In this document: positions 22,800 to 60,992 of the stretch, piece by piece
How positions within the stretch are numbered: position 1 is the stretch's first letter
How the letters are laid out: the number at the start of each line of letters is the position of its first letter
Assembly (NCBI GenBank): GCA_965198065.1
Contig: CBDAON010000004.1
Span: 2,805,022 to 2,869,021, forward strand
Direction of reading: 5' to 3'
DNA from: Longimicrobiales bacterium
GTDB taxonomy: Bacteria > Gemmatimonadota > Gemmatimonadetes > Longimicrobiales > Gaopeijiaceae
Length of the DNA stretch: 64,000 nucleotides
The notes under the pieces: model-generated
What the model was told of the DNA's origin: nothing
What the model saw: the letters and a program-made list of their open reading frames with translations, nothing else
Databases searched by the model: none
Made by a program: the position numbers and the translations under genes

Positions 22800-25700
22800 C
22801 TACCAGCCCACTGTGAGTCGGCCCACCAGGCTGTGGTCCGGCTTTTCCTGAAGCAGGCTCTCGCGGCGCTGGGCGTCGAGGCCGAACTGGAAGCTCATGG
22901 CGCCACCCTGCACGACAGCCAGGCTGTAGCCCAGCCGGTAGTCGCGCCCGTACTCGGAAGTCGTGACGCCGAACCTCGGGGTCCCCACCAGCCGACTCCC
23001 GACCGGCAGCGCGTAGCCGAGCTCGGCGTCGATGCGGTCGCCCGATCCCGGGCCTCCTGCCCCGAGCCCCTCCATCGTATCGCGGCCCCAGAGTGCGTCG
23101 GCACCGCTCATCGCCTGCCCGCCCCACGAGGGCGCGAGCCGCGCCGTGAAGCCCAGCGGCGTCGATGGCGTCGGGTCGTAGCTGAACGACACCGACACGC
23201 CCCGTTCCCTGAACCCTTCGTCCTGATGCACGAGCAGCGTCCGCACCCGCACGTCGACCGACAGTCCGGTCAGCGGGTCCGCTGCGATCAGGCTTGCGGC
23301 GATGTCCGCGCCCGCGCCCGTCTCCGCGTCCCCGCCGTCCTGCCTGAGCCCGACCTCGAGGCTCGGCTGCAGCGCGATGCCGTGTCCGAAGACGTAGCCC
23401 CTCGAGGCCTCGAGCGCTGTCCGCACACGCGTCACCACCGCTTCGGTCCCAGCCAGTCGGCCTGCCGGACCGTCCACGGCCTCGCTGCCCGTGCCCACCC
23501 ACAGCGCGTCCGCCTTGAACGCCAGCCCGAACCCGCCGACACCGGCATCCACCAGATCGCCCCTCACGCCCCCGGCGAGCATCGACATCGAGAGCCCGCC
23601 CTCGAGAGCGACGGGAGCCGCGAGAGACGTTGGTAGAGACAGTGCCTCACCGGGTGTCAGGCTCAACGAGCCCCTCCCGTATCCGGTCACGCCCCAGAGC
23701 GTGACCCGCTCGCTCAGCTTGTATCCCACCCAGGGGTGGAGCCCCGTGACCGACGAGGCCACCTGGCCCACGTCGGCCTCCTGGTAGCCGCCCAGGCCTC
23801 GGCGGTGCGAGAGCATCAGCCCCGCCATCAGCGGCCCCTTCGCGTAGTCCGCCCCGAACATCGTCGTGCGGACCCCGCCGTCGAGCGACAGCTCGCCGTC
23901 CCGGCCGCTGAACCGCGACTCCATCCCGCGGCTCCAGAGCGAGACGCTCGCGCCCCCGCCCGTCTCGCGGTTCAACACGAACCCCGAGCCCATCAGCAGG
24001 TCGCCGCCTCCGAGACCCGTCCGCAGTAGCTCGGCGCCGCTCAGATCGGACTGGACGCCCGTCGTATCCCGAGCGCCCGCGCCCGCCGTGGACTGAAGCC
24101 GGGTCAGGAAGTTCCGGCCCATATCGCGCTCCATCCCACGCCTGAGCTCACGCCCCGCGAACCGGCCCCGGAAGCCCGAGGCTCTGGACGCCTCCAGCCG
24201 CTCCTCCACCTGCTCCATCACGTGGAGCGCCGTCGCCCGCCCGAACCGCGCCAACAGCGCCCGCGGCAGCGGATCGGTGTTCTCGATCGTCCCGGTCGCT
24301 TCCGCGTCAGCCAGCCGGCCCTCCGACGGATTCGAGAGCCGGAGCGTCATCGTCTCCTCGCCCTCGTCGTGCGAATCGTCGAGCACCGCGACCTCGACCG
24401 TCTGCGACGACTCGCCCGCCCGGAACGTCAGCGTCCCGTTCGCGGCCGTGTAGTCGTCGCTCGCGTGCGCACTGCCGTCCGCCGTCTGGTAGTCCACCGT
24501 CACCTGCCCGGCAGCCGCGCGGCTCAAGGTGACCGCGAACTCGAGCACGGCGCCCGCGCCTTCCTCCACCCGCGCATCCGCCACGGAGATGCCCACTGGG
24601 CCGGCCACCGTCGCCGAGGGCGTCTCCGACAGCGCCCGGCCGTCCTTCGTGCAGACCGCCGCCGGGGTGCCGCAGGCCGCCCCGGCCGCGAGCGTCACCG
24701 TCACGTCCGACGGCGAATCCGGCTCGACCGTCAACTGCCACAGGTCCCGGCGCCGGTTCACCCGACTGGCCTTCGTCGCCCGGCCCCCGGCCACCGCCAC
24801 CACGTCCTCCCGCAACCGCCGGCCGTTCATCCAGCTGAGCGGCTCGCTGAACGCGATCCGCAGTGTGAACGCGCTCTCGCCGTCATGCGCCTCCGGCACG
24901 CCCACGAACGACGCCGTCAGGTCCGCCGAAACGGCCTCGGGGCCCGCCACCGTCGCCGTCGGCGTGTTGGCGAGCTGCCGCCGGTTGTCCCCCTTCGTGC
25001 AGATCGCACCCGAGACCCCGCACTCGCGCCCCGCCGGCAGCTCGATCGTCACGTCCCCGTCCGAATCCGGCTCGACCGTCATCTCGAACAGGTCGCGCCG
25101 GTCGTCCACCCGCCCTCCGCCCGTGACCCGCCCGCCCCTCACCGTGAACGCGTCCTCGCGGAGCGCCCGGAAGCTGATCCCGATGTCCTCGCTGAACGCC
25201 ACCCGGAAGGTGAACGGCGTCTCCCCGTCGTGCTCCGCCGGCATGCCCTGGAACGCAGCCGTCAGGTCCGGCCGTGCCGTCGTCTCGGTGTTCCGAATCG
25301 TGCCCACCGCCTCGTTGTCGTTTTTCGCGAAGTACGCGTTCCAGGCGTTGGTCAGCACCAGCGTGAACGTCTCCCCGTCGTCCTCCACCGCATCGTCCGT
25401 GATCGGCACCGACACCGTCTTCTCGTCCTCGCGCGGCGCGAAGACCAGCGTGCCGCTCGTCGACGTGTAGTCGGACGCCGCCGTCGCCGTGCCATCCCGC
25501 GTCCGGTACTGGACCGTCACCTTCCGCGACGTCTTCGGGTCGAGCCTCACCACGAAGTCCACCGTATTGTCCTCGCCCTCGGTCGCCTCCGCGTCCGCCA
25601 CCGACAGCGACACCGGTCTGTCGTCGTCGTCCTCGACCACGAGGACATCGGGAAGGATGAGGTCGTTGTACGCCGGGTCCCTGCTGTGCACCCGGCTCAG

Positions 25701-28700
25701 GAAGACGCGCTCGCCGTTCACCGCGTCGTCGTCGTGCTCCGCCAGGATTACCATCCAGATCGGCGTCTTCCACTCGTCCGGCGCGATCGGCAGCACCGTG
25801 TGGTTCGTCAAGACGTGCAGGTCCTCGTCGCCGTCGGACTGGATCCCACGCAGGTGGACCGTGTGCGTCGGCCGGGTGTCCAGCTTCAGCCCGTAGCGCC
25901 CCTTGGTGCCCTCGCGGATCACCAGCCGGTGCCTCCCGTCCGCATGCATCTCGAGCGGATCGCCGTCGGTATCGATGATCGTGACGCTACCCGGCTTCGC
26001 CGTCGTCCCGCCGTCGACCTTGTGGTCGGACTGCGGACCGAGCGCCCCGTGGGAGAGGTCCGCGTCGAGGCCCGTCGCGGCGCTGCGGATGCGCGCGCCG
26101 CCGAGCCGTATCGCGTTCGCGCCGACCGCCACGCCGTCGTCGTCGCGGTCCTCGGCCTTCACCGTGTAGCCGAAATGCACCTTGACCCCTTCCGGCCGGG
26201 GCCGAGGCGACGGACGGCCCTTTGCCCAGTCGGTGTCCGTCAGCCCGTAGAACCGGGCATCACGCGCCGTCCCGCCCAGGTCGAACGCCAGCGTCGGCTG
26301 CGGGTCGCCCTTCACCCGCACCTTCTCGGAGAAGGCCAGCGTGAACACGATCGTCTCGCCAAACCCGTACACGTCCTCATGCCCGTCCCGTTGCGGCCAG
26401 CTCCTCACCTCCAGCGATGAGATCGTGGGGGCCTCATTGGCGTTCGCGTCCGTCCTGCCACTGCCCGAGTCCGACCAGGCGCCCCTGCCCTCGTCGTTGG
26501 TCGCCCGCACCTGCACCTGGTAGGAGGTGTTCTCCGACAGGCCCGTGACCGTCGCCGCGGTGGCCGTCCCGTTGTGGCCCCCGTCGCTCCAGCTCCCGCT
26601 CGTGCCCGCCCGGTACTGGACGTCGTAGTCGGTGATCGCCGGGCCGCCGTTGGCCGGCGCCGACCAGTTCACCGTCAGGCTCGACACCGACGCCGGCGCC
26701 ACCGTCGGCGCGTCCGGCTTGCCCGGCGCCTCGCCGCCCACATCCGTCACCGTCACCGTGATCGTCTGTGTCGCCGTCTTCTCCCGCTCGCCCGCGCCGC
26801 TCGTCGCCGTCACCTCCACCACGTAGGTGTTGTTGCTGCCCTGGTCCTGGGCGTCCTCGAAGTTCGGCGCCGCGTCGAACGTCAGCGCCCCCGACGTCGC
26901 CCCGATCGAGAACAACGCCTGGTCCGCCCCGCCGGTGATCTCGTAGCCCGTGACGTCGTCGTCCGAATCGGAGTCCGTCGCCAGCACCGTGCCCGCCGTC
27001 GTCTGGTTCTCCGCCGCGTCGAACGCCGGAGGAGCTGAACGTCGGCGCCGCGTTCGCGGCCGCGGCGGTCGCGCCGGTTCCCGAGTCCGACCACGAGCCG
27101 GTCCCCTCGTCGTTCGTGGCCCGCACCTGCACCTGGTAGGAGGTGTTCTCCGAGAGGCCCGTCAGCGTCGCCGTGGTGGCGGTGCCGGTGTGGCCCCCGT
27201 CGCTCCAGCTCCCGCTCGTGCCCGCCCGGTACTGGACGTCGTAGTCGGTGATCGCCGGGCCGCCGTTGGCCGGCGCCGACCAGTTCACCGTCAGGCTCGA
27301 CACCGACGCCGGCGCCACCGTCGGCGCGTCCGGCTTGCCCGGCGCCTCGCCGCCCACATCCGTCACCGTCACCGTGATCGTCTGTGTCGCCGTCTTCACC
27401 CGCTCGCCCGTGCCGCTGGTCGCCTGTACCTCGACCACGTAGTCGTTGCCGGTGTCGGAGTCCTGGGCGTCCTCGAAGTTCGGCGCCGCGTCGAACGTCA
27501 GCGCCCCGGAGGTCGCACCGATCGAGAAAACGCCTGGTCCGCGCCGCCGGTGATCGCGTAGCCCGTCACGTCGTCGCCCGCGTCGCTGTCCGTCGCCAGC
27601 ACCGTGCCGGCCGTCGTCTGGTTCTCCGCCGCGCGAACGTCGCCGGTGAGCTGAACGTCGGCGCCGCGTTCGCGGCCGCGGCGGTCGCGCCGGTTCCCGA
27701 GTCCGACCACGTCGCCGGTGCCCTCGTCGTTCGTCGCCCGCACCTGCACCTGGTAGGAGGTGTTCTCCGAAAGGCCCGTGAGCGTCGCCGTGGTGGCGGT
27801 GCCGGTGTGGCCCCCGTCGCTCCAGTCCCCGCTCGTGCCCGCCCGGTACTGGACGTCGTAGTCGGTGATCGCCGGGCCGCCGTTGGCCGGCGCCGACCAG
27901 TTCACCGTCAGGCTCGACACCGACGCCGGCGCCACGTCCGGCGCGTCCGGCTTGCCCGGCGCCTCGCCGCCCACATCCGTCACCGTCACCGTGATCGTCT
28001 GCGTCGCCGTCTTCTCCCGCTCGCCCGCGCCGCTGGTCGCCTGCACCTCGACCACGTAGTCGTTGCCGGTGTCGGAGTCCTGGGCGTCCTCGAAGTTCGG
28101 CGCCGCGTCGAACGTCAGCGCCCCCGACGTCGCCCCGATCGAGAAGAGGTTCTGGTCCGCTCCGCCGGTGATCGCGTAGCCGGTGACGTCGTCGTCCGAA
28201 TCGGAGTCCGTCGCCAGCACCGTGCCGGCCGTCGTCTGGTTCTCCGCCGCGTCGAACGTCGCCGATGAACTGAACGCCGGCGCCGCGTTGGCGTCCGTCG
28301 CGCCGCTGCCCGAGTCCGACCAGTCGCCGGTGCCCTCGTCGTTCGTCGCCCGCACCTGCACCTGGTAGGAGGTGTTCTCCGACAGGCCCGTGAGCGTCGC
28401 CGTGGTGGCGGTGCCGGTGTGGCCCCCGTCGCTCCAGCTCCCGCTCGTGCCCGCCCGGTACTGGACGTCGTAGTCGGTGATCGCCGGGCCGCCGTTGGCC
28501 GGCGCCGACCAGTTCACCGTCAGGCTCGACACCGACGCCGGCGCCACGTCCGGCGCGTCCGGCTTGCCCGGCGCCTCGCCGCCCACATCCGTCACCGTCA
28601 CCGTGATCGTCTGCGTCGCCGTCTTCACCCGCTCGCCCGCGCCGCTGGTCGCCTGCACGTCGACCACGTAGTCGTTGCCGGTGTCGGAGTCCTGGGCGTC

Positions 28701-31329
28701 CTCGAAGTTCGGCGCCGTCGTTGAACGTCAGCGCCCCCGACGTCGCACCGATCGAGAAGAGGTTCTGGTCCGCTCCGCCGGTGATCGCGTAGCCCGTGAC
28801 GTCGTCGCCCGCGTCGCCGTCGGTCGCCAGCACCGTGCCGGCCGCCGTCTGGTTCTCCGCCGCGTCGAACGTCGCCGAAGAGCTGAACGCCGGCGCCGCG
28901 TTGGCGTCCGTCGCGCCGCTGCCCGAGTCCGACCACGCCGGTGCCCTCGTCGTTGGTGGCCCGCACCTGCACCTGGTAGGAGGTGTTCTCCGACAGGCCC
29001 GTCAGCGTCGCCGTGGTGGCGGTGCCGGTGTGGCCCCCGTCGCTCCAGCTCCCGCTCGTGCCCGCCCGGTACTGGACGTCGTAGTCGGTGATCGCCGGGC
29101 CGCCGTTGGCCGGCGCCGACCAGTTCACCGTCAGGCTCGACACCGACGCCGGCGCCACGTCCGGCGCGTCCGGCTTGCCCGGCGCCTCGCCAGCCACGTC
29201 GGTGACCGTCACCGTGATCGTCTGCGTCGCCGTCTTCTCCCGCTCGCCCGCGCCGCTGGTCGCCTGCACGTCGACCACGTAGTCGTTGCCGGTGTCGGAG
29301 TCCTGGGCGTCCTCGAAGTTCGGCGCCGCGTCGAACGTCAGCGCCCCGGAGGTCGCACCGATCGAGAAGAGGTTCTGGTCCGCTCCCGCCGGTGATCGCG
29401 TAGCCCGTGACGTCGTCGCCCGCGTCGCTGTCGGTCGCCAGCACCGTGCCGGCCGCCGTCTGGTTCTCCGCCGCGTCGAACGTCGCCGATGAGCTGAACG
29501 TCGGCGCCGCGTTGGCGTCCGTCGCGCCGCTGCCCGAGTCCGACCAGTCGCCCGTGCCCTCGTCGTTCGTCGCCCGCACCTGCACCTGGTAGGAGGTGTT
29601 CTCCGACAGGCCCGTGAGCGTCGCCGTGGTGGCGGTGCCGGTGTGGCCCCCGTCGCTCCAGTCCCCGCTCGTGCCCGCCCGGTACTGGACGTCGTAGTCG
29701 GTGATCGCCGGGCCGCCGTTGGCCGGCGCCGACCAGTTCACCGTCAGGCTCGACACCGACGCCGGCGCCACGTCCGGCGCGTCCGGCTTGCCCGGCGCCT
29801 CGCCGCCCACATCCGTCACCGTCACCGTGATCGTCTGCGTCGCCGTCTTCTCCCGCTCGCCCGCGCCGCTGGTCGCCTGCACGTCGACCACGTAGTCGTT
29901 GCCGGTGTCGGAGTCCTGGGCGTCCTCGAAGTTCGGCGCCGCGTCGAACGTCAGCGCCCCCGACGTCGCACCGATCGAGAAGAGGTTCTGGTCCGCTCCG
30001 CCGGTGATCGCGTAGCCCGTGACGTCGTCGTCCGAATCGGAGTCCGTCGCCAGCACCGTGCCGGCCGCCGTCTGGTTCTCCGCCGCGTCGAACGTCGCCG
30101 ATGAGCTGAACGCCGGCGCCGCGTTGGCGTCCGTCGCGCCGCTGCCCGAGTCCGACCAGTCGCCGGTGCCCTCGTCGTTGGTCGCCCGCACCTGCACCTG
30201 GTAGGACGTGTTCTCCGACAGACTCGACAGCGTCGCCGTGGTGGCGGTGCCGGTGTGGCCCCCGTCGCTCCAGCTCCCGCTCGTGCCCGCCCGGTACTGG
30301 ACGTCGTAGTCGGTGATCGCCGGGCCGCCGTTGGCCGGCGCCGACCAGTTCACCGTCAGGCTCGTCACCGACGCCGGCGCCACGTCCGGCGCGTCCGGCT
30401 TGCCCGGCGCCTCGCCAGCCACGTCGGTCACCGTCACCGTGATCGTCTGCGTCGCCGTCTTCTCCCGCTCGCCCGCGCCGCTGGTCGCCTGCACCGTCGA
30501 CCACGTAGTCGTTGCCGGTGTCGGAGTCTGGGCGTCCTCGAAGTTCGGCGCCGCGTCGAACGTCAGCGCCCCGGAGGTCGCACCGATCGAGAAGAGGTTC
30601 TGGTCCGCTCCCGCCGGTGATCGCGTAGCCCGTGACGTCGTCGTCCGAATCGGAGTCCGTCGCCAGCACCGTGCCGGCCGTCGTCTGGTTCTCCGCCGCG
30701 TCGAACGTCGCCGAAGAGCTGAACGCCGGCGCCGCGTTCGCGGCGGGCGTCACGATGCTCCCCGTCGGACACACCTGCGTCGCCGTGCGCAGGCACACCG
30801 TCGCCGTGCTCCCGACCGGAAACTCGGTCTCTAGATCGTCCAGTGCGTCCGGAGCGGTCCAAATCAAGCTCTGGCCGATGCTGATCGCAGTGATCAGATC
30901 CGAGAATGCGAGCGCGTGCCCGCCGAACTCCAGCGTCAGGGGTTCGGCTGTCGAAAGTCCGCCCGCGACGACGAATCTGACGACATTATTCGTCGCCACG
31001 TCGATGGCAAGGACCCTATAGGGCAAGGACCCGTAATCGAAATCGTCGTCGTCGAGCGCCCCGATCGCGGGCGTGTCGGTCGCGTCGTAGCCGTGCCCCA
31101 CCCGAGTTTCACCCGCCGTCATGGTCGCGGACCAGACCGGGTCGGTCGTCTGGGCTGCGGCGGGGAGGGCGAGCGCGCCGGAGAGCACGAGCAGCGCCGC
31201 GGCGAACAGCGGGCGGAGCGGACAAGCCCGCGCGCGCGGCGCAGTTATGGCGGTGGGCGCTCCGCACTCCGCTTTAACGACCGCATCCCGTCGCACGCCG
31301 CACCCGGCTATCCCCCTTCGACCGTTCAC
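22800..31329 (-). CDS. giant autotransporter adhesin (signal peptide, 7x cadherin+FN3, Calx-beta, beta-barrel), frameshifted as assembled
   Basis: Signal ...LALPAAAQ, repeated ATDSDSDDDVTGY/APNFEDAQD and PANGGPAITDYDVQYR units, two Calx-beta domains (VSVPITDDAVEDDGETF, VAVLDDSHDEGEETM), and a barrel ending in W. Confidence 0.85.
26434..30740 (-). repeat. seven near-identical ~612-bp tandem repeats (cadherin + FN3)
   Basis: The marker GGGCCGCCGTTGGCCGGCGCCGACCAG recurs at about 26641, 27257, 27874, 28486, 29097, 29710 and 30321. Confidence 0.95.
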
Positions 31330-31433: not shown

Positions 31434-31467
31434 GATAGCTCTCGATAACTGTAGTTATCGAGAGTAA
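31434..31467 (+). other. lox-like recombination site, left
   Basis: GATAGCTCTCGATAACTGTAGTTATCGAGAGTAA: arms CTCTCGATAA/TTATCGAGAG around an asymmetric CTGTAG spacer. Exact reverse complement of 32538-32571. Confidence 0.85.
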
Positions 31468-31503
31468 ACTTTTTGGCTGTATGTCATTGTGCAGGGGGCA
31501 CTT

Positions 31504-32490
31504 ATGCAGATTTCAGCCCCAGGAGGTGTGTCCGACCGTCCCGACCCGGCCACTCGAAAGTCACAAAACGGCGAGCGCCTGACCGCCTACCTGGAGGACG
31601 CCCGCGGCGCCCTGAGCGGCCATACCGTGCGAGCGGTGCGAGCGGACCTGGAACGGTTCGCGGCGTGGTGCGCCGAGCGGGGGCGTTCTCCGCTGCCCGC
31701 GCGCGCGGCCACGGTGGTGGCCTACGTCGAGGCGATGGCGAGCGAGCGAGCGCCGGCCACCGTGCGGCGCTACGTCTCGAGCGTCGCCACCGTGCACAAG
31801 GCGGCCGGGGAGCGGAGCCCGCTCGAGCACGTGACCGTGAGGCGGGCGCTGAAGCGGATGCACCGGCAGAGGGGGTGCCGGCAGAGGCAGGTGCGGGGGC
31901 TGACCTGGGCGCTCCGCCGGCGCCTGATGGAGGCCGCGGGCGACCGGGTGATCGACGTCAGGAACCGCGCGATCCTGGCCGTGGCCTACGACGCCATGCT
32001 CCGGCGCTCCGAGCTGGTCGCGCTGCAAGTCGTTGATGTGACGATAGAAAGGGGCGGCTCGGCCTCGCTCCTCGTGCGCCGCGCGAAGACCGATCCGGAG
32101 GGCGGCGGCGCGATGCTGTACCTGCACCGAGACAGCGTGAGGCTGCTCTCGGAGTGGCTGAGCGCGAGCGGGATCAGTGGCGGGCCGCTCTTCCGTTCGA
32201 TGCGCAAGGACGGCACGCTGGGCGGCCGGCTGCATGAGAGCCAGGTGCCGCGCATCTACAAGGCGATGGCCGAACGGGCCGGGCTCCCGGAGCAGATCGT
32301 GCGGCGGCTCTCCGGGCACAGCCCCCGCGTGGGCGCGGCTCAGGACATGATCGCCAAGGGGATCGGGATCCCGGCGATCATGCAGGCCGGGCGCTGGAAG
32401 AACGCCCAGATGGTGCAGCGCTACGGCGAGCGGCTGCTGGCCAAGCGCAACGGCGCCGCACAGCTGGCACGGCTTCAGAAACGCAGATGA
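31504..32490 (+). CDS. Cre-like tyrosine recombinase
   Basis: Cre-type N-domain (RFAAWCAERG...PATVRRY) and catalytic AMLRRSEL, AKTD, SGHSPRVGAAQD, GRWK...RY. Confidence 0.9.
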   Translation: MQISAPGGVSDRPDPATRKSQNGERLTAYLEDARGALSGHTVRAVRADLERFAAWCAERGRSPLPARAATVVAYVEAMASERAPATVRRYVSSVATVHKAAGERSPLEHVTVRRALKRMHRQRGCRQRQVRGLTWALRRRLMEAAGDRVIDVRNRAILAVAYDAMLRRSELVALQVVDVTIERGGSASLLVRRAKTDPEGGGAMLYLHRDSVRLLSEWLSASGISGGPLFRSMRKDGTLGGRLHESQVPRIYKAMAERAGLPEQIVRRLSGHSPRVGAAQDMIAKGIGIPAIMQAGRWKNAQMVQRYGERLLAKRNGAAQLARLQKRR

Positions 32491-32537
32491 GCCCCGAAGA
32501 ACCCGGGGGCCTCTCTGGTCACAAACTTTGCCGCGGG

Positions 32538-32571
32538 TTACTCTCGATAACTACAGTTATCGAGAGCTATC
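32538..32571 (-). other. lox-like recombination site, right (inverted)
   Basis: TTACTCTCGATAACTACAGTTATCGAGAGCTATC is the reverse complement of 31434-31467. Confidence 0.85.
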
Positions 32572-32751
32572 CGGAAAGCTACGCGCTATTTTGTGAGTGA
32601 GTTGTGACTTGTCGGGCGAGCGTCGTGGCCCTTTAGTGACTTCACGCGCGAAGAGCGCTATCCTCCACCCCCCGCGGTCCGGCGGAAGGCGGCCGGGCCG
32701 ATCGTCCGGAGCCTCGTCCGCTCCGCCTCACCCTTCGGCGGGAGTGGAGCA

Positions 32752-35085
32752 TTGAACGATCGAGACCCTACGGGGCCCTCCGACGACCGCATCTCGCGGC
32801 TGAGCGCGGCCATCCTCCGCATCAGCCAGAGCCTGGACGTGGCCACCGTGCTGGAGGAGGTCGTCGAGAGTGCCCGCGCGCTCACCGGCGCCCGCTCGGG
32901 CGTGATCACGACGATCGACGAGCAGGGAGAGGTCCAGGACTTCGTCACATCCGGCCTTTCTCCCGAAGAGTACCGGAAGATGGTGGAGTGGTCCGACGGG
33001 CGGCGACTCTTCGAACACCTTCGCGACCAGGCGAAGCCGCTCCGGGTGGCGGACCTCCCCGGCTACCTCGACTCGCTCGGCCTCTCGCCGACGCCCTGGA
33101 CGTCGAGGTCGCTGCATGGGACCCCGATGCACCACCTGGGCGAGCATCTCGGCAACTTCTTTCTCAGCGACAAGGAGGACGGCGAGGCGTTCACGGGCGA
33201 GGACGAGGAGATCCTGGTGCTTTTCGCCTCGCAGGCGGCGACGGCGATCGCGAACGCGCGCACGTACCGCGATCTCGAGCGGGCGCGGGCCGACCTCGAG
33301 GCGCTCATCGAGACCTCGCCGGTCGGCGTGGCGGTGTTCGATGCCGGCACCGGCCATCCGGTCTCGTTCAACCGCGAGGCGCGGCGCATCGTCGAGGGGC
33401 TCCGCACGCCGGGCCGTCCACCGGAGCAGCTGCTCGAGGTGATCACGTGCCGGCACTCCGACGGGCGGGAGGTCTCCCTAGAGGAGTTGCCCCTGGCCCG
33501 GCAGCTCGGGAGCGCCACGACGATGCGGGCCGAGGAGGTCGAGCTGTCGGTGCCCGACGGGCGGAGCGTCCGGATGCTCATCAACGTCACGCCGATCCGC
33601 TCCGAGGAGGGAGGGGTCGTGTCGGTCGTCGTCACCATGCAGGACCTGGCGCCGCTCGACGAGCTCGAGCGGCAGCGGGCGGAGTTCCTCGGGATGGTGA
33701 GCCACGAGCTCCGCGCCCCGCTGACCTCGATCAAGGGTTCGACGGCGACCGTGCTCGGCGCCGTGCCGGTCCCGCCCCAGGCCGAGCTGCTCCAGTTCTT
33801 CCGCATCATCGACGGGCAGGCCGACCACATGAGGGGCCTCATCGCGAACCTTCTGGACGCGGGAAGCATCGAGGCGGGCACGCTCACCGTCGCGCCCGAG
33901 CCCGCGAACGTCGCCGCGCTGGTGGACCGGGCCCGCAGCACGTTCCTGAGCGGCGGAGGCCGGCACGCCGTCCTCATCGACCTGCCGCCGGACCTGCCGC
34001 GTGCGATGGCCGACCCGGAGCGCATCGTGCAGGTGATGAACAACCTCTTCTCGAACGCGGCCCGCCACGCTCCCGCGTCCTCCCCGATCCGGGTCGAGGC
34101 GACGTGCGAGGGCGGCTACATCGCGCTCTCGGTCTCGGACGAGGGCCGGGGGATCCCGCCCGACCGGCTCCCGCACCTCTTCCACAAGCGCGCCGGCCTC
34201 GCCGGAGGCACCGGGCTCGGCCTCGCCATCTGCAAGGGCCTCGTCGAGGCGCACGGCGGCCGTATCCGCGCCGAGAGCGGGGGGACGGACCAGGGCGCGC
34301 GCTTCACCTTCACGATCCCGGTGGCCGGGCCGGCCACCCCCGAGGCAGCCCCACCCGAGGAGGCTCCGGCCAGCGACCGGCCACGCCCGCCCGGGGACGG
34401 GCGGGAGAAGACTCCCGTCCTGGTCGTGGACGACGACCCGCAGACGCTACGCTACGTGCGCAACGTCCTCTCCGATGCGGGCTACGCCCCGCTGGTGACG
34501 GGCGATCCGGACGGGCTCCCCGGCGTCATCCGCGCCGAGAAGCCCCGCCTCGTCCTCCTCGACCTCATGCTCCCCGGAACGGACGGGATCGAGCTGATGA
34601 AGCGGGTCCCCGAACTCGCCGATCTCCCGGTCATCTTCATCTCCGGCTACGGCCGCGACGAGACGATCGCCAAGGCGCTCGAGAGCGGCGCCGCCGACTA
34701 CATCGTCAAGCCGTTCTCGCCGACCGAGCTCGTCGCGCGGGTCCAGGCGGCGCTACGTGCCCGGGCCGTGCCCGAGACGTTCGTGCACGGGGAGCTCGCC
34801 ATCGACTACGGCCGCCGACACGTGAGCGTGGCCGGCCGCGAGGTCCCGCTCACGGCCACCGAGTTCGACTTGCTGCGCATCCTCTCGCTCAACGGGGGAC
34901 GCGTGGTCACTACGGAGGCGCTCCTCCGACAGGTGTGGGGGCGCCGGGGCTCGGACGACACCGATCGCGTGCGCACCGTCGTCAAGAAGCTCCGCCACAA
35001 GCTCGGCGACGACGCCGCCAATCCCACCTACATCTTCAACGAGCACGGCGTCGGCTACCGCATCGCGACCCCGGGTGGGGCTTAG
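32752..35085 (+). CDS. hybrid GAF-PAS-histidine kinase-receiver-OmpR wHTH protein
   Basis: VSHELRAPLT, NNLFSNA, GTGLGL, VVDDD...LLDLMLP...KPF, LTATEFDLL...HGVGY. Confidence 0.92.
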   Translation: MNDRDPTGPSDDRISRLSAAILRISQSLDVATVLEEVVESARALTGARSGVITTIDEQGEVQDFVTSGLSPEEYRKMVEWSDGRRLFEHLRDQAKPLRVADLPGYLDSLGLSPTPWTSRSLHGTPMHHLGEHLGNFFLSDKEDGEAFTGEDEEILVLFASQAATAIANARTYRDLERARADLEALIETSPVGVAVFDAGTGHPVSFNREARRIVEGLRTPGRPPEQLLEVITCRHSDGREVSLEELPLARQLGSATTMRAEEVELSVPDGRSVRMLINVTPIRSEEGGVVSVVVTMQDLAPLDELERQRAEFLGMVSHELRAPLTSIKGSTATVLGAVPVPPQAELLQFFRIIDGQADHMRGLIANLLDAGSIEAGTLTVAPEPANVAALVDRARSTFLSGGGRHAVLIDLPPDLPRAMADPERIVQVMNNLFSNAARHAPASSPIRVEATCEGGYIALSVSDEGRGIPPDRLPHLFHKRAGLAGGTGLGLAICKGLVEAHGGRIRAESGGTDQGARFTFTIPVAGPATPEAAPPEEAPASDRPRPPGDGREKTPVLVVDDDPQTLRYVRNVLSDAGYAPLVTGDPDGLPGVIRAEKPRLVLLDLMLPGTDGIELMKRVPELADLPVIFISGYGRDETIAKALESGAADYIVKPFSPTELVARVQAALRARAVPETFVHGELAIDYGRRHVSVAGREVPLTATEFDLLRILSLNGGRVVTTEALLRQVWGRRGSDDTDRVRTVVKKLRHKLGDDAANPTYIFNEHGVGYRIATPGGA

Positions 35086-35096: not shown

Positions 35097-35411
35097 TCAG
35101 TCCCACTCCCCCTCGGCGTCCCTGTTGAGCGCGTCGGCGAGTTCGGGATCGCCCTCACCGCGCCGGACGGAGCGCTCGGCGAGATCGACGCGGCGTCCCA
35201 GGTCGGCGAGTCCGGCGGCTCGCGCGACGGCGTAGATGGCGGCTAGAGCGGCCGTCAGTGCCAACCCCAGGTGCAGGGCGATGAGAACGCCATAGTCCGA
35301 GAGGATCAGTGGCCAGAACGGCGCGAGATACTCGAGGCGTGATCCGGCGAGTAGGACGGCCGAGCCTGCGAGGGCAGCGGTGAGGCCTGCGCTGATCTTC
35401 CAGGGTTGCAT
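35097..35411 (-). CDS. small membrane protein
   Basis: 104 aa with two hydrophobic segments, last gene of the conjugation operon. Confidence 0.55.
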   Translation of the reverse strand: MQPWKISAGLTAALAGSAVLLAGSRLEYLAPFWPLILSDYGVLIALHLGLALTAALAAIYAVARAAGLADLGRRVDLAERSVRRGEGDPELADALNRDAEGEWD

Positions 35412-35420
35412 GGGGGCGGG

Positions 35421-36308
35421 CTAGAGCTCGAGCGCGGCCGGATCCCGGTCGGTCGGCCCTCGCAGGGAGGAGCGATCTCCGCCGTCGCCCACGCCGAGTG
35501 AGCGGAGCAGGCGCGCCGCGGCCGGTCCGTTGGCGTGCATCCGGAACCCGGCGGCCACCTTGGCACGTATGGAGCGAGCCCGGTAGTTGCCCGATGCGAC
35601 CTCGATGTTGACGCGTCCGGTGCGCCCCTCGGAGTCGGTGTACTCGATCTGCGCATCCGGGTAGAGCACGCGGCCTTGGGCATCGATCGGCAAGCCGAGC
35701 TCCTCGGCCACGCGGTGCCGCTCGGCGTCCGCGGCCCGCCGGCCGTCTTTCGCCCGCGCGGACTCGCTCTTGCGTGCTACGGCGCTCTTGAACTCGCCGT
35801 CGAGACGCACACGGCGGACGGTGGCCCCCTGCTCGATCAGGCGTTGGTGCTCCTGGCGGCAGGCCCGATAGATGGCGGTGTCGTGCGCGGCTTCGGCGGG
35901 CCGGGTACGTGCGAACCCGATCTCCTGGCCGGGATCGATTCCCCGCTCGGCGGCCAGCTTCCGGGCCTCGGCCACGCCTTTCCGCGTGAGGGTCAGCACC
36001 TTGAACGGGTTGCCCTTGGGTCCCTTGGCCGTGGACTCCTGGGCGAGCCCTTCGCGGATCCAGGCGTTCACGGCCCGCCGGGTGGTGTAGGGATGGCCGC
36101 CGAAGTGAGCCTCGGCGAGATCGCGGTACGAGACGGCGCCGTAGATGCCGATGTCGGCGAGCGCCCCACGGCACCGTTCTCTGAAGGAGGTGGACCCGCG
36201 GTCCCGGCTCGCGTCGTATTCTCGGCGATGGCCGTCCCGCATGCGGTAGATAGCGCGGCTTGGTGGCGCGGCGGGACGCGGGTCCGATGCGATCGTGCGG
36301 TCGAACAT
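35421..36308 (-). CDS. Replic_Relax-like protein (wHTH + PD-(D/E)XK)
   Basis: AAHDTAI, YPDAQIEY, NIEVASGNY...IRAK pattern, within the T4SS operon. Confidence 0.55.
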   Translation of the reverse strand: MFDRTIASDPRPAAPPSRAIYRMRDGHRREYDASRDRGSTSFRERCRGALADIGIYGAVSYRDLAEAHFGGHPYTTRRAVNAWIREGLAQESTAKGPKGNPFKVLTLTRKGVAEARKLAAERGIDPGQEIGFARTRPAEAAHDTAIYRACRQEHQRLIEQGATVRRVRLDGEFKSAVARKSESARAKDGRRAADAERHRVAEELGLPIDAQGRVLYPDAQIEYTDSEGRTGRVNIEVASGNYRARSIRAKVAAGFRMHANGPAAARLLRSLGVGDGGDRSSLRGPTDRDPAALEL

Positions 36309-36330
36309 CTCCTCGGCTCCTTCCTTGGCC

Positions 36331-37366
36331 TCAGCGGCCCGGGCCGAAGCTCCGGGTCGGGACCGGCAGCGGGAGCTCCGGCCGGGATGGGCGTGCTGCC
36401 TCGGGCGGGAGCGCGGGTACGCGGCCACCGGGTGCCGCTCGCGCTCGGCCTCACGCTCGCGGCTCCGGGCCAGCACGAAGTCGGAGATCTTCTGTGCGTC
36501 GGCCGCGGCGCGGCGGATCTCCCGGGGGTCCTCCTCGAGGGCGGCGATCCACCCCTCGACGTAAGCGGCTCCCCGGCTCGGGTCGTGGCCGACGCCCACG
36601 CGCTCGCCCGTCATCATTGCGCTGATCTCCGCGCGGAGCTCCTCCTTCGCATAGGCCGGCGAACCGAACCCTTCGCTCGATCCCTTGGATGAGCGTCTCG
36701 CGGTTCATCCGCTCCGGATGGCCGGTGCTGTGCCCCAGCTCGTGGAGCGCGGTCTGGTAGTAGTGGTTGGCCGAGGGGAACTGCACGCGCTCGGGGAGCA
36801 CGATCTCGTCGCGGTTCAGGTTGTAGAACGCGCGGTCGCCCGCCACGTGACGGACGGGGACCCCGCTGTCCTCGAGCACCTCTCGGCCTGCTGGTGCGCC
36901 TTCCAGAGCGGCTCGGCCGTGGGTGTGGGCCGGGCCGGCAGCCCGTCGGCCTGCTCGGCGTTGAACACGGTGTACTGGCGGACGACGGGCGCTTGGCAGG
37001 CGCTCGTGGCGGTAGACGCGCTTGCCTTCGTTGTCCCTCTTGGGCCGTCCGCGCTCGTCGTTGACGGCGATCTTCCGGTGGTCCTGGAACGAGAGGATGC
37101 GAGTGCCCTGCTCGCCCTTCCGCACCTGTCCGTCCCGGGCTTGGATCTGGCGGTAGGTGCCCCAGCGCACGTCGCCGTAGCCGCGCTCCTGCTGCCACGG
37201 CGGCGAGATGCAGGCTGTTCCCGCCCCTGTAGGAGCGTCCGGTATCGACGTTCGCGGGGAGCACGCGCTCGCCCGGCCCCCAGGGCTTCTGCCACGGCGC
37301 GGTGCCCTGGCGGATCTGCTCGATGATCCCCTCGGCGAACTGGCGGTGATATTCGTCGTGTTTCAT
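36331..37366 (-). pseudogene. ardC: ArdC-like antirestriction/ssDNA-binding zincin protein, frameshifted
   Basis: GTAPWQKPW, YRGGNSL, WGTYRQ...VRKGE, YTVFNAEQ and ALHELGHSTGH across several frames. Confidence 0.85.
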
Positions 37367-37566
37367 CGCTCTTCCTCCTCGGGGCCGTGCGGATCCTCCC
37401 GGCGTCGCGGATCTCGTCCTCGGTGCCCACGTCCTCGGGGAAGAGGCCGTACTCTTCGGCCAGCGAGGCCGGCACCTCGAGGGCCTCGCCTCCGTCGCGC
37501 GCGAGCTCGCGGTCGAAGTCGTCGAGCGTCTCGACGCGAACGATCTTCTCGTCGCTTTCCATGGCC

Positions 37567-38550
37567 TCACTCCTTTTCTGTTTGTTCTTCATCGTCCTTC
37601 CTCCATATCGTCTCCGTGAGCCAGCGATTGGCAGCCGAGTCGTAGCTCCGGACCCCGATCGCCTCCTCGACGAACCGTCGGCCCCCTCGCCGGGTCATGT
37701 GGACGACGAGATGGATGCCGTCGACCACGCCCCTGCAGGTGACCTCCCAGGGGAGCGCCCCTCCGGCCTGCATGGCGCAGCTGGCCAGGCGCGAGAGCGC
37801 GGAGCGGGCGTTGTTGGCGTGCACGGTGGTGAGCGATCCGCCGTGGCCGGTGTTGAGCGCCTGCAGCAGATCGGCGGCCTCGCCGCCCCTGACCTCGCCG
37901 ACGACGATGTGGTCGGGCCGGTGGCGGAGCGCGTGGCGGACCAGGTCGCGGATCGACACGGGCGCCTCGGAGCCCACCGCCCCGGCCTCGAAGCGCAGGC
38001 AGTTGGTCCGGTCGATCCGGAGCTCGAGCGTGTCCTCGATGGCGACGATCCGCTCCTCCTCTGGGAGCAGCTCGATCAGGGCGTTCAGGAGCGTGGTCTT
38101 GCCCGAGCCGGTGCCGCCCGAGACCAGGATGTTGCGCCGGGAATGGAGGGCGTCGCGGGCGGCCCGGAACACCGTCTCGGGGAGGGCCCCCTGGCCGACG
38201 AGGTCCTCGGCCGAGAACGCGCGGCCCCCGAACCGGCGGATGGTCATGGCCACGTGGGGGCTCGCGGGCGGCGTGCAGATGGCCACGCGGGAGCCGTCGT
38301 CGAGCCGCGCGTCTAGGACGGGCCGTGTGGCCGGATCGAGCCCGAGCGGCCTGGCGATGTGGATCGCCGCCCGATGGAGCGCGGCGGCGGTGAGCGCCGG
38401 TGCTTCGATGGGCTCTAGCTCCCCGCCGCGCTCGACCCAGACGTTGCCGGGGCCGTTGATCATCAGCTCGGAGACCTCCGGATCTTCGAGCACGGCCTCG
38501 AGGCCCGGCAGAAACGGTTTCAGGTGCCCGATGCCCGTGGCCCGCTTCAT
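37567..38550 (-). CDS. virB11: VirB11/CpaF-type secretion ATPase
   Basis: GGTGSGKTT, IEDTLEL, LRHRPDHIVVGEVRG, NTGHGGS. Confidence 0.9.
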   Translation of the reverse strand: MKRATGIGHLKPFLPGLEAVLEDPEVSELMINGPGNVWVERGGELEPIEAPALTAAALHRAAIHIARPLGLDPATRPVLDARLDDGSRVAICTPPASPHVAMTIRRFGGRAFSAEDLVGQGALPETVFRAARDALHSRRNILVSGGTGSGKTTLLNALIELLPEEERIVAIEDTLELRIDRTNCLRFEAGAVGSEAPVSIRDLVRHALRHRPDHIVVGEVRGGEAADLLQALNTGHGGSLTTVHANNARSALSRLASCAMQAGGALPWEVTCRGVVDGIHLVVHMTRRGGRRFVEEAIGVRSYDSAANRWLTETIWRKDDEEQTEKE

Positions 38551-39888
38551 AGCCGGCCCTCCTCGCGGAGCCGCCAGTAGCCCGTGCCCCTCGGCAGGTA
38601 GTGGGGTTTCAGGTAGACGCGCAGGGCCGGGAGCGACTTCGTGCCGTCGTAGGGCAGACAGATCGCCTGGTAGTTGGCCAACAGCGCGAACTCGCGCGGC
38701 GTGAACACGGGCTCCCTCTGCTGCCGGAACGACTTGCTCGCTCCGATCGTGCCCCGCCCGCCCCCGGCGCGTCCCGAGAGCAGAGAGAACTCCGGCCTGC
38801 CCGTGGTCTCGGTGAACGTGTAGGAGGGCTGCGTCTTCATGACGCTGCCGCACATCTCCGATGCGATCCTGGCCGAGGACTCGTCGCTCAAGGACAGGAA
38901 GATCCGGGTGCGGAGCGTCTGGACCAGCGTGCGCCAGGCCTCCGTGCCCGACAGCACGGAGCGGAGCGAGGAGATCGACTGCGTGGCGACGATCGGGATG
39001 CAGCGGCACTGCCGCGTCAGCGCGAACGCCTTCTCGTCGCCAGCGGGGTCGTCCTGGCCCACGGTGGCGAACGCCTGGTACTCGTCGCAGATGAAGACTG
39101 CGGGCCGGAGGTAGCGTCCGGGCCGGCGGGCGGCCTCGGCGGGCCGCCGGAGGAGCGCCTGCATCCAGGCGTTCTTGAGCAGCACGCCGATGGCGCGGCC
39201 GAGCGCCGGGTTCGCGCCCGCGGGCATGTTGAGGGCGAGGACCTTGCCGCCCTCGATCAGCTCCGTGAGCGGCGGCAGCCGGCGACGGAGCCCCGGCATG
39301 GGCCGGACGGCCTCGGGGTCCTCGTCCGGCGCATCGTTACCTATATGTATAGATGGGGACTCATCCGATTCCGGAGGCGGCGGACAGAAGACTCCGGCCA
39401 CGCCGGGCTGATCGAACAGCGACAGGAAGACCGAGATGCCCTCGACGATCGAGGTGCGGAGCTTGGCATCGAGCGCCATCCAGTCGTTCAGGTACCAGCG
39501 CTCGATCGCCTCCACCTGGTCCCTGAGTTCGCTCCCTGCTCCGCTCTCGCCTTCCTCGGTCTCGAACGGGATCCTGAGCTCGGCGAGCCGATCCCGGAGG
39601 ACCGGATCGAGCCGGCACGTCACCGTGTCCTCACCGGAGGTATATATCCAGACCCAGTCATTCAGCGCTTCCGGATGGCCGATCATGTCGTCGTGGGAGA
39701 TGACGACGCGCGCCGGGCACGCCTCAGCCACCAGGTCCTGGGCCTCGCGGATTCTCTCGGCGAACAGTTCCGCGTCGATCGTGCAGCGGTAGACATCCTG
39801 CAGCGTGACCCAGCCCCCCGGCAGGAGCCGGTGCAGTTCGACGATCCAGCGCACGAGATTCGTATAGGCTTGCTGCCAGAACGGCTCG
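38547..39888 (-). pseudogene. virD4: type IV coupling protein, C-terminal part
   Basis: EPFWQQAYTNL..., Walker B FICDEYQ, IVATQS. Continues the N-terminal part at 54245-54965. Confidence 0.85.
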
Positions 39889-40009
39889 TTCCTCGTGCGC
39901 GGTAAACTGGTTACTATGAACGCTTTACAGATTCCATAGGGGTTCCGTCCCCACCATTCTGTCCACCGGGAAGAAACGGATTCCGTTGGCTCTACCTAGC
40001 CGAGAACGG

Positions 40010-41065
40010 ACGTGACCGTTCGGCCAAGCTGTCACTGCTAGAACTGGCCTAGGAACTCGGCAACGTGTCGAAGGCGTGCCGGATCGTGGGCTAGAGCCGG
40101 CAGCAGTTCTACGAGATCCGGCGTAACTTCCAGGTGTACGGGGCCGAGGGGCTGCTGGACCGCATGCCGGGGGCGAGGGGGCCGCACCCGAACCGAGTTG
40201 CCTCGGAGGTGGAGGAGGCGATCCTGGTTCCCACGCGCTGGCGCACCCGGCGCACGGGGCGCAGCGGGTGGCCGACGAACTGATGCTCAGGGGTGTGGAT
40301 CCGGAACTGGCTGAAGACGCGTTGCGAACGGTTGCTGCGGCTGGAGAAGACGGTCCGGGAGAGCGACTTCGAGCTCACCGAGGAGCAGATCCTGGCGCTG
40401 GAGCGCTTCGACCCGGAGTACCGCGAGCGTCACATGGAGGTGAAGCGACAGGCGAACTCGTGGCCGTGGACACGTTCTTCGCGGGCACGTTGAGTGGAGT
40501 GGGCAAGGCCTACATCCAGACAGTGCTGGACTGCTTCAGCCGGTTCGTGTGGGCGTGGCTCTACACCTTGAAGAAGCCGGTGACGGCGGTCGAGATCCTG
40601 AACAACCATGTGCTGGCCTTCTTCGAGGAACACGGCGTGAAGGTCGAGACGGTGCTGAGCGACAACGGGCGGGAGTTCTGCGGTCGCGAGGACCAGCATC
40701 CCTACGAGTTGTTCCTGCAGCTCGAGGTGATTGAGCACCGCACCAAGCAGGTGGGCCGTCCGCAGTCGAACGGGGTTCATCGAGCGCTTCCACCGCACGC
40801 TCCTGGACGAGCACCTCAGGGTGAAGGGGCGGACCACCTGCTACTAGGCGGTCAGCGAGATGCAAGAGGATCGCGACGCCTACATCGAGACCTGCAACCG
40901 CAACCGTCCGTACCGCGTTAGCGGCATGGAGGGGCGAACGCCGTATCAGGTGTTCAAGAAAGGGATCCGCAAGCCACGGAGCCGGAAGAACTCAACCCGA
41001 AGACCGCAGCCTGAAGCGCTGACCTCGGCAAGGCACGGGTGTCAGGTGATCACCGTACTTGTACA
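40010..41065 (+). mobile_element. IS481-family transposase remnant
   Basis: ELGNVSKACR, GELVAVDTF, LSDNGREF, several stops and frameshifts, right end ...GTACTTGTACA. Confidence 0.8.
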
Positions 41066-41167
41066 TCCCATACCAGCACCGCTCGGATGCCCCATTGCGC
41101 GTCTTATGCCGAGGGCGCCTTCATGTGCAAGATCAGCCTCACATCGCCGTCACTCGCGAGAACGGCG

Positions 41168-42052
41168 CTATTGCCCTTCTTCCGGCTTGTTCCTCTCCGT
41201 TTCCCTTATCGCCGCATGAACCTGGAAGAGTTTCAACCAATACCTCTTGTAGGCGGGATTCTCGCGTACCTTCCTCTGTGCGGTGCAGTGATCGATTATG
41301 TTCGTGAGAAACCACAGGAATGGATATGCTGACGATCTTCCGAGTGCTGGCACGAGGCCCATATCACCGACCGTACAGAACTTCGATCCCGTAAACATCG
41401 TCTCGCTACCCATCGAAATCCGTTTTTGATCATCCGCCGGGATAAGCATGCCCTCCCCAAGTACAAAAAAGAGGTTCGGCCAAAGATCCCGCTCTACAGA
41501 TTGCAGTTCTTCGTTCACAACTTCGGCGAGCTTTTCAAGTGTGTAGTCAGTCTGATAGGCAAACACGCCAAAACATACTCCGTGGTTCTTGCTGTTCCAT
41601 GGCGCTTCATCATCGAACATCCCGAGCCTCTTTAGGCTCACGCAGTTAACCGTGGCATCCCTGATCGTGGACCTAGTCAACCGCGACTTCACTTGTATCG
41701 AAGCCAGACATGCCTCGATAGGGTGGTGACCGCTCCCGCCTGGCAAGATTGCTCCGGCGACATTCCTGTCGACAATCAAGATATCTTGTTCCTTACTGAC
41801 AGCCATCAGGTCAGTGAGTGCGAATCCCTTAACCGCTACCATTCCACCTGGCAGCATGTCGTCCAATACATCGAGCAGTGGCGTCTCCCGTGACGAACCC
41901 CGGTGACCTGGATGACGAATGGTGTCCTTCTGTCTTGCCAAGGAGTCTAACATCCCGAGTGTGCCTTCGAACCACTTCTCCATCTTGGTGGCGTCTATCT
42001 TCAATCCATCGAGTTTCCGTATCTCCCTTTTGAACTCGTCTCGGTTCACCAA
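41168..42052 (-). CDS. DUF6602-like putative PD-(D/E)XK nuclease
   Basis: HPGHRGSSRE...SKEQDILIVD...IQVKSRL, lower GC than the flanks. Confidence 0.6.
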   Translation of the reverse strand: MVNRDEFKREIRKLDGLKIDATKMEKWFEGTLGMLDSLARQKDTIRHPGHRGSSRETPLLDVLDDMLPGGMVAVKGFALTDLMAVSKEQDILIVDRNVAGAILPGGSGHHPIEACLASIQVKSRLTRSTIRDATVNCVSLKRLGMFDDEAPWNSKNHGVCFGVFAYQTDYTLEKLAEVVNEELQSVERDLWPNLFFVLGEGMLIPADDQKRISMGSETMFTGSKFCTVGDMGLVPALGRSSAYPFLWFLTNIIDHCTAQRKVRENPAYKRYWLKLFQVHAAIRETERNKPEEGQ

Positions 42053-42274
42053 ATCCTCTCCTTTTCGTTTGCGCTCCGTTCACGACCGACGGCCGCCCCA
42101 TCGGATCCGTGACGCGCTCCACGGGCCGCCACCTTATCGGAATTTGCTACTTGAGCGCGGGTTTCGGGCGGCGTTCGCCTCATTCGAAGCTCTTGGGGCT
42201 GACTCCACTGGGTGGAACACCGTCCGATGACCGCCGCGCGACCTGGGGAAAACAACATCGTCACGCGCAGGGTC

Positions 42275-43457
42275 TGACGTGACACCCGGAAGCTGAGCCA
42301 GCTATTCTCTGACTCCTCGGAGTAAGTGAGGAGTCATGAGGAAGAGTAGGTTCACGGAAGAGCAGATCATCGGGATCCTACGGGAGGCGGAGGCGGGCGG
42401 AGCGACGAAAGAGGTATGCCGACGCCACGGGATCAGCCACGACACGTTCTATCGGTGGAAGAAGAAGTACGGGGGCCTTGAGGTCAGTGACGCGAGGCGG
42501 TTGAAGGCACTTGAGGACGAGAACCGACGGCTCAAGCGCATCGTGGCCGACCAGGCGCTGAACCTTCAGGTGCTGAAGGACCTGCTGGGAAACGAGTTGT
42601 GACGGCCGGGGAGCGGCGCCAGGTCGTCCGGAGGGTGCAAGCCGCCGAGAAGGCCTCGGAGCGTCGAGTGGTCCGTTGGACAGGCTTCCCGCGTTCAACG
42701 ATCCGGTACCGAAGCGAGCGCCCAGCTCAGGAGGGGTTACGTGCGAGGATCCGGGAGCTCGCGGGCGAGCGGCCTCGCTGGGGCTACCGACGCATCCACG
42801 TGCTTCTGCGCCGCGAGGGATGGCTGGTGAACCGGAAGCGGATCCACCGGCTCTACCGCGAGGAAGGGCTCGCGGTGCGGCGAAAGGGTCGGAGACGACG
42901 GAGCCAGGTACCACGACCGGTGCGTGACCCACTCGGCCATCCGAACGAGCGGTGGAGCGTGGACTTCATCATGGACACGCTGAGTACGGGCCGAGTGTTC
43001 CGGTGCCTCGCGGTGATCGACGAGTTCAGCCGCGAGTGCCTGGCACTCCACGTCGCTCACTCGATCCCTGCGGCGAGCGTGATCGAGGTGCTCGAGAGAC
43101 TTCGGGAGGAACGCGGCTTGCCGGAGCGCGTGATCTGCGACAACGGCTCCGAGTTCACGAGCCGTGCCTTCGACGCCTGGGCCTACTCCCGGGACCTCAA
43201 GATAGAATACATACAGCCGGGCAAGCCGATTCAGAACTGCTTCGTCGAGAGCTTCCTCGGGAGCTTCAGGGACGAGTGCCTGAACCTCCACTGGTTCCTC
43301 TCCCTACGGGATGCGAGGCACACGATCGAACGCTGGAGGCAGGACTACAATCGCGTCCGACCCCACAGCGCCCTGGGCGATCTCCCACCTGCGGACTTCG
43401 CCCTCAACCACCACATGGAGTCAGGGAATAAACGGATCAACTAAGGGTGTCACGTCA
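42275..43457 (+). mobile_element. IS3-family element, apparently intact
   Basis: IR TGACGTGACACCC/GGGTGTCACGTCA, 4-bp TSD GGTC, orfA 42336-42602, orfB 42599-43444 with WSVDF and DNGSEF. Confidence 0.95.
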
Positions 43458-43521
43458 GGTCGATTCCCGATCTGTTCTCTTTCCAAGGGGAGAGGATGCA
43501 CCTCCAAATCGTCGGGAACGG

Positions 43522-47580: not shown

Positions 47581-47934
47581 CCGAGACCTCCAAAGCCCAA
47601 CAGCCCCGAGTCAGCTTGGTCGAGCAGCGCAATCCTTAGTATTGTCCAATCCTCCTCTGACAGTGATCCGGCCCGTGCATCCAAACTAGCTCCCACCGCG
47701 CTCGAGCGCGCCTCGTCGAAAGCCCACCCGAGCCTGCGAGCGAAGCGTCGCTTACGCTCGTCGGGAAGCTGACGGAGGTGCCGTCGCCGGAGGCCGGTCC
47801 GACTCCGGGACGGCGCTGGAACCCTTGGGAAATCGTCTTGATTCAGGCGGTTGACACCGCCCGAACGGGCCCTCTCTGTGTACAGTATGGAGATTCCGAC
47901 GACCCAGGATTCCCGGCGCCGGGAGCTGTCTCAC

Positions 47935-47970
47935 ACCCTTAAGGTGCGTAAGCCAGCCGACGCAGTGTTG
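47935..47970 (-). other. candidate oriT (ColE1-like nic)
   Basis: Minus strand CTGGCTTA at 47949-47956 matches the ColE1-type nic core and lies ~140 bp upstream of mobC. Confidence 0.6.
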
Positions 47971-48091
47971 AACACTGCGGCCTGGCAAGGGGGACGCTGC
48001 GCCCCCCTAGAACCCCCGGCTTCCCGCGCCGCTGAGCAATCAGCGGACGGGCGCGCGAGGCCGCGCCCGGAACCCCATCGCCGGTGCGCCC

Positions 48092-48430
48092 GTGCCTGAG
48101 CGCCGCACCGTGATGATCGCCGCGCGCGTCACGCCTGCGGAACACGCCGCCTGGCGGGAGAAGGCGGCCGCAGCGGGCGTGTCGCCGTCCGAGTTGTTGC
48201 GGCGAGCGATGGCGCAAACGCGGACGTGGACCGCGCCGGCACGCGCCGTCGAGCGTGATCGCACCCGCCAGATCGCGCGCATCGGAAACAACCTGAACCA
48301 GCTCGCGCGCTGGGCCAACACCCACGCCTCGACGGCCGAAGCCGTCTCGGTGATCGCCCACCTCGTCTCCTTCGAGCGCTCGCTGCTCCGTCTGGCCCAC
48401 ATCGGCGAGGACGGCGGCGATGCACCTTAA
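48092..48430 (+). CDS. mobC: MobC relaxosome accessory protein
   Basis: RHH-like N-terminus and ARIGNNLNQLAR. Confidence 0.9.
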   Translation: MPERRTVMIAARVTPAEHAAWREKAAAAGVSPSELLRRAMAQTRTWTAPARAVERDRTRQIARIGNNLNQLARWANTHASTAEAVSVIAHLVSFERSLLRLAHIGEDGGDAP

Positions 48431-60986: not shown

Positions 60987-60992
60987 GGCGTG

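Follow-up and report, generated by a model that had tools for sequence, protein, structure and literature searches.

The window, a stretch of 64,000 nt from Longimicrobiales bacterium GCA_965198065.1 (contig CBDAON010000004.1, 2,805,022-2,869,021, forward strand), carries a gene for a Cre-type tyrosine recombinase of 328 aa at 31504..32490 on the + strand, with an alternative GTG start at 31489. Two 34-nt lox-like sites enclose this gene, one on the adhesin side (31434..31467, +) and one on the kinase side (32538..32571, −). As the original prediction had it, the sites are exact reverse complements with sharp edges: 1070 nt lie between them, and identity ends at both borders. A fuzzy search that tolerated as many as 5 substitutions within the 26-nt core recovered only these two lox-like sites in the whole 3.05-Mb, 4-contig genome. 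To the left lies a giant surface-protein gene (22800..31329, −) encoding repeats of the fn3, cadherin, and Calx-beta types and an autotransporter-like C-terminal end, and to the right a gene (32752..35085, +) for a hybrid sensor kinase-response regulator of 777 aa, which joins GAF, HisKA, HATPase, and receiver domains to an OmpR-type DNA-binding domain. The autotransporter-type gene and the kinase-regulator gene that had been predicted for the two flanks were thus both recovered, the former with surface repeats in addition; its C-terminal end had no Pfam match to an autotransporter domain, but in language-model features it was similar to the beta-domains of autotransporters (0.97; 29 of 30 matches).

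In this assembly, the adhesin gene is split over several frames by frameshifts, and single-base gaps among its ~612-nt repeats (26434-30710) may be assembly errors. Beyond the adhesin lies a short open reading frame (ORF) (21936-22364, −) whose translation resembles an AlpA-type regulator. Genes of a conjugative element follow the kinase gene (35097..62816) and encode ArdC-like, VirB11/TrbB, TraG-like, relaxase, integrase, TrbL, TrbI, CagX-type, and TraG P-loop proteins. The ArdC-like gene is split over three frames (35421-37570), which may also be an assembly error.

The recombinase contains the SAM-like and catalytic domains PF02899 and PF00589. Among solved structures its best matches were those of P1 Cre (E ~1e-29), with XerD reaching only 1e-4; identity to P1 Cre is 29%. 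Residues R167, K195, H272, R275, W298, and Y307 were invariant in 13 of 13 aligned homologues, and they correspond to the R, K, H, R, W, Y catalytic list given for Cre-type enzymes in the accessible part of PMC10250229. Its size, domains, catalytic set, and nearby 13-8-13 site all place the protein among the Cre-type tyrosine recombinases. It is an intact enzyme of this type, judged by sequence, and is predicted to act on its own sites. Membership in the Hin/Gin serine invertases was rejected, since the domain and structure matches are of the tyrosine type. No close relative was found on plasmids (best, ~47%) or in phages (best, 29%).

The original prediction had divided each site into 10-bp arms and a 6-bp spacer, CTGTAG. 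The architecture is better read as 13-8-13, with the asymmetric spacer ACTGTAGT at 31448-31455 in the adhesin-side site; CTGTAG survives as the inner 6 nt of this spacer. The palindrome is perfect over 12 nt on each side, with a central GT. Of the central 18 nt, 17 agree with SloxM1 (SloxM1 sequence from the available portion of PMC3082901), and no match to the site was found in plasmids. The enzyme and its sites are a fair candidate for a new recombinase/target pair.

Close homologues of the recombinase were taken from genome contigs (21 of 28 loci above 65% identity), metagenome contigs, and genome searches. The genome searches detected them in 10 of 151 genomes from the family, in 19 of 251 from the order, and in 5 of 114 from a second family, and the named records fall into four phyla (Gemmatimonadota, Acidobacteriota, Latescibacterota, and Pseudomonadota). 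Judging from the record names, the uncultured marine bacteria that bear the module may be associated with sponges. Collapsing the 159 fetched loci above 55% identity left 75, and dropping a duplicate (L173) left 74 nonredundant loci, which comprise a main group of 64 and a sister group of 10 (57-68% identity). In 57 main-group loci, both sites adjoin the recombinase gene. The sister group has no kinase, and in 8 of its 10 loci there is an inverted pair whose second site lies further downstream, which ruled out a one-site reading of this group. No gene-bracketing site pair was seen in 24 more distant relatives. A roaming insertion sequence was likewise ruled out by the conservation of the kinase-type flank beside nearly all copies.

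Several relatives showed arrangements of their own. In L084, both inverted sites lie 3′ of the recombinase gene (+1109 and +1466 from its start) and enclose ~360 nt that do not include this gene, a fim-like layout but with a Cre-type enzyme. L085 (856-2309) and L087 (415-1880) carry ~180-nt inverted repeats, 82-83% identical and 1.1 kb apart, upstream of a 52% relative, possibly another invertible region. One contig (G426:C3) holds seven recombinase matches, and matched spacers between these copies could rearrange the chromosome. At G000:C4:1743908-1749915, a stretch that is 89% similar to the end of the adhesin region in the window lies ~4 kb from a 40% recombinase fragment.

In Cre, the exchange zone comprises 6 nt, and the first and last spacer positions fall outside it. 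Among the 57 partner pairs, spacer positions 2 to 7 were identical in 55, with 12 different cores represented; over 10,000 shuffles, 9.6 pairs matched on average and 20 at most. Of the mismatches between partner spacers, 15 affected position 1 and 3 the last position, and 2 lay inside. Relatedness inflates these match counts; nevertheless, the matching pattern recurs on separate branches. According to the part of PMC10250229 available to us, matching of the inner spacer is required for Cre strand exchange and not for binding. Since the inner spacers co-vary as this chemistry requires, the data support the view that partner sites recombine with each other. In two close relatives, L118 and L120, a mismatch between the partners at spacer position 2 is predicted to lock the segment. 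Spacers of 9 nt, matched in both partners, occurred in 8 of the 57 pairs (L017-L019, L054, and L128-L131).

Both orientations of the segment exist among the relatives. Relative to the window, 6 main-group loci were flipped and 57 were not (63 loci, with the fragment L133 left out), and the flipped loci sit in three separate supported branches. Between L122 and L011, both flanks are 98% identical while the interior is reversed; L078 compared with L124 and L020, and L008 compared with L169, likewise represent clean inversions, with breakpoints in the sites and identities of 90-98% across these cases. The site of L009 is the crossover product of two unequal L011 sites; L009 and L011 come from one assembly, with L009 at a contig start, and could represent two copies. 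Assignment as flipped is weaker for L021 and L051, which face an adhesin-type flank but lack their 5′ side. Most flipped copies are damaged by an insertion, a truncation, a site mismatch, or a contig end, and the flipped state may simply mark a dead copy. No flipped copy was found in the window's 40-locus sub-branch, though 10 of these loci have a locally broken kinase. The kinase-free sister group is biased as well, with 8 of 8 loci oriented one way. A tree tally, which gave one flip change, compared against the sister group only and was not used.

The both-orientations hallmark of invertons was therefore found across related genomes and not for the window's own locus. Seven contig-level runs had no strand-changing joint among the matches listed; their contigs break at the repeat and are therefore silent on orientation. 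None of the 24 runs listed was an RNA run with the locus. The original prediction had held that the segment inverts and had proposed homologous loci as a place to look for either orientation; that comparison yielded both, with breakpoints in the sites and co-varying partner spacers. Altogether, inversion of the 1.1-kb segment is very probable.

We then considered what inversion could control. Sigma-70-like motifs were evaluated with a crude score of our own against shuffles, over 43 or 42 distinct sequences. At the 3′ end of the segment, an outward-facing motif was found in 25 of 43 loci (z 11); in the window, its inner GTCAC box and candidate −10 (CAAACT) would lie at 32518..32527 (+), and the window and its nearest relatives are without the −35 (score 5.9). 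The adhesin-side flank gave no promoter signal (z −2.1 to 0.1), and a promoter at the segment 5′ end facing the adhesin was rejected as not above shuffles (z −0.2). The kinase has a promoter-like motif of its own outside the segment, in the fixed flank (GTGACT, 17 nt, TATCCT; putatively 32636..32664, +), which was present in 31 of 42 loci (z 16). The kinase should thus be independent of orientation. These data bear on the predicted toggle between adhesin and regulator expression: control of the adhesin is plausible, given the lack of a promoter signal in its flank and the outward motif, whereas a simple toggle between the two is unsupported, given the kinase's own motif, the bias of 6 against 57, and the missing −35 in the window. 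On/off switching of the adhesin by inversion is probable, though less so than inversion itself.

PHO-type boxes take the place of a −35 element. On the kinase side of the window, four boxes of the (G/C)TCAC type with spacings of 11, 21, and 11 nt (32593..32640, −) form a candidate OmpR/PhoB-family operator, and a conserved TAnnTT at 32576..32581 (−) is a candidate −10 facing into the segment, found in 37 of 42 kinase-side flanks and in 0 of 42 other flanks. The arrangement of two boxes followed after 11 nt by TAnnnT, facing into the segment, occurred in 34 of 42 kinase-side flanks compared with 0 of 42 others. An 11-nt repeat is the PHO-box pattern in the accessible text of PMC4415409. The 11-nt repeats, the spacing, and the winged-helix regulator domain of an OmpR/PhoB-type promoter system are all present, and binding of the regulator is putative. 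For the inward promoter, a full sigma-70 motif did not rise above shuffles (z −0.1) and was rejected; only the box and −10 pattern is conserved. For a candidate recombinase promoter in the unflipped state, TAnnnT was seen in 18 of 36 loci and is absent in the window; the full motif scored z 0.3. A standard promoter scan of 31200-32900 returned 0 matches, and the same scan reads the site with its adjoining T-run in the window as terminator-like, which could stop an inward transcript; a run of at least 5 T after the site occurs in only 2 of 36 loci.

Orientation was associated with the state of the kinase gene. None of the 40 loci with a full kinase was flipped, compared with 6 of 21 with a broken or missing kinase; the Fisher p of 0.001 overstates this association, which reflects about three independent events. 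We examined five incomplete genomes for kinases elsewhere. Full-length kinase was absent from the three genomes holding flipped L009, L008, L021, and L051, while the genome of L014 and L175, which are unflipped with a broken kinase, has several full-length kinases elsewhere. The genome of flipped L122 has one full-length kinase, but an insertion lies in its flipped recombinase gene. Since kinase-less genomes hold flipped copies and a genome with kinases elsewhere stays unflipped, the pattern fits a regulator acting in trans. Several observations weigh against it: L011 and L049 lack a kinase yet remain unflipped, most flipped copies show other damage, the kinase-free sister group has an orientation bias too, the genomes are incomplete, and the site with its T-run resembles a terminator in the window. 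Taken with the motifs, the pattern makes a sensor-driven reset of the switch by the kinase conceivable at slightly worse than even chances.

A simpler account would be an invertible promoter of the Hin kind, in which stochastic flips switch the adhesin and the boxes serve only the kinase promoter. The outward motif in 25 of 43 loci would suit it, the distal boxes do overlap the −35 of the kinase's own motif, and the kinase-free sister group shows the same layout and bias. Nonetheless, the proximal boxes with their TAnnnT are directed into the segment at fixed spacing in 34 of 42 flanks, and flipped copies coincide with the lack of a full kinase at both locus and genome level. We consider this account unlikely, although it is the strongest of the alternatives.

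Among close pairs (inner ends at least 85% identical), 35 of 98 had unrelated adhesin-side flanks but 1 of 95 had unrelated kinase-side flanks, and the change falls at the site. The window itself combines an interior 90-95% like L163 with an adhesin flank 88% like L167. Because the adhesin flank varies where the kinase flank stays, and because the window joins L163-like and L167-like parts, surface-protein cargo has likely been exchanged at the site between copies, alongside inversion. The ORFs on this other side of the site often start 20-50 nt from it (104 nt in the window). Scanning of 53 of the 67 listed, over at most their first 650 aa, identified 42 with surface repeats, 1 with a hexapeptide repeat, and 10 with nothing. 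In L077 and L174-L176, the adhesin-side gene encodes a short hexapeptide-repeat protein in place of a giant surface protein.

Conceivably, the sites serve mainly for such exchange between modules of conjugative elements, with inversion a by-product in decaying copies. The flank statistics, the genome with seven matches, and the damage to most flipped copies speak for this idea; yet exchange would need no more than a single site, whereas 57 loci retain two that are inverted and matched in their spacers, and promoter-like motifs are placed where inversion would move them. As the primary role of the sites it appears a little less likely than the Hin-like arrangement, and the cargo-exchange and inversion roles are not exclusive. 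A purely operator or resolution function of the sites, with no inversion of the segment, is very improbable: the single orientation of 57 of 63 main-group loci and the lack of a strand-changing joint in contigs that cannot span the repeat would agree with it, but the clean inversions in three branches largely refute it already, and spacer matching serves strand exchange rather than binding (PMC10250229, as far as its text was available).

In our favored model, which as a whole we rate somewhat better than an even bet, a Cre-type gene within inverted lox-like sites likely inverts the 1.1-kb segment that contains it; this would turn the adhesin on or off, and the kinase is predicted to bias the switch back to off. 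The off state would be the window's orientation, in which the recombinase and the outward motif face the kinase and no promoter faces the adhesin. In the flipped, on state, the adhesin gene would be transcribed from the segment 3′ end or, if the −35 is missing as it is in the window, by read-through of the recombinase gene. The PhoB-type promoter in the kinase flank would be antisense to the recombinase in the off state and would face the recombinase gene once the segment is flipped. An activated regulator would then raise recombinase levels only in the flipped state, making the on state short-lived. More tentatively, the module may be a mobile memory circuit that combines self-flipping, an interchangeable surface protein, a signal reset that operates only when flipped, and same-site cargo swaps across phyla.

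Among known systems, Cre-type enzymes serve as one-site resolvases and laboratory tools, FimB and FimE of Escherichia coli are tyrosine-type recombinases, and RecV, the recombinase of the cmr switch of Clostridioides difficile, is encoded elsewhere in the genome. The module resembles Cre/loxP of phage P1 and SCre/SloxP of Shewanella sp. ANA-3 in its enzyme type, its catalytic residues, and the 13-8-13 site by the gene; unlike in those systems, two inverted sites enclose the gene and both orientations are found (the protein comparison was with P1 Cre, and that with SCre/SloxP was by site). The Cre-mining papers, in their available parts, pair each enzyme with one nearby site (PMC4957104 and PMC10250229). 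The recombinase lies inside the segment between inverted sites as in Hin/hix of Salmonella, where orientation sets the expression of an outside surface-protein operon (available part of PMC9368917). Hin, however, is a serine recombinase needing Fis and an enhancer, whereas the enzyme here is a Cre-type tyrosine recombinase, and the module is carried by conjugative elements across four phyla, beside a dedicated sensor-regulator.

The fim switch, according to the accessible text of PMC11868660, is an invertible promoter for an adhesin with a neighboring recombinase, and such a promoter is predicted here. Unlike in fim and the gut invertons, the recombinase gene here is part of the segment, and orientation would regulate the recombinase too; invertases near gut invertons are generally not regulatable by them, as stated in the part of PMC11892184 at hand. 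The cmr switch with CmrRST, in the portion of 10.1101/2021.10.06.463453 available, couples an invertible promoter to autoregulated OmpR-family signaling, much as predicted here, but the switch there controls the signaling operon; in the present module, the predicted target of the regulator is the recombinase within the switch. A literature search, with most subscription papers outside its reach, returned no description of a Cre-type self-inverting module. One supplement file of PMC10250229 had no match to the site core or to three taxon names, and that paper's ~500-pair table may lie outside that file and could include a member.

If the model is true, dozens of enzyme/site pairs whose spacers match naturally, among them a form with a 9-nt spacer, would become available from the homologous loci, as would a candidate circuit for signal reset that could interest synthetic biologists. 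For the uncultured marine bacteria that carry it, the module would be a transferable way to vary their fn3, cadherin, and LRR surface proteins.
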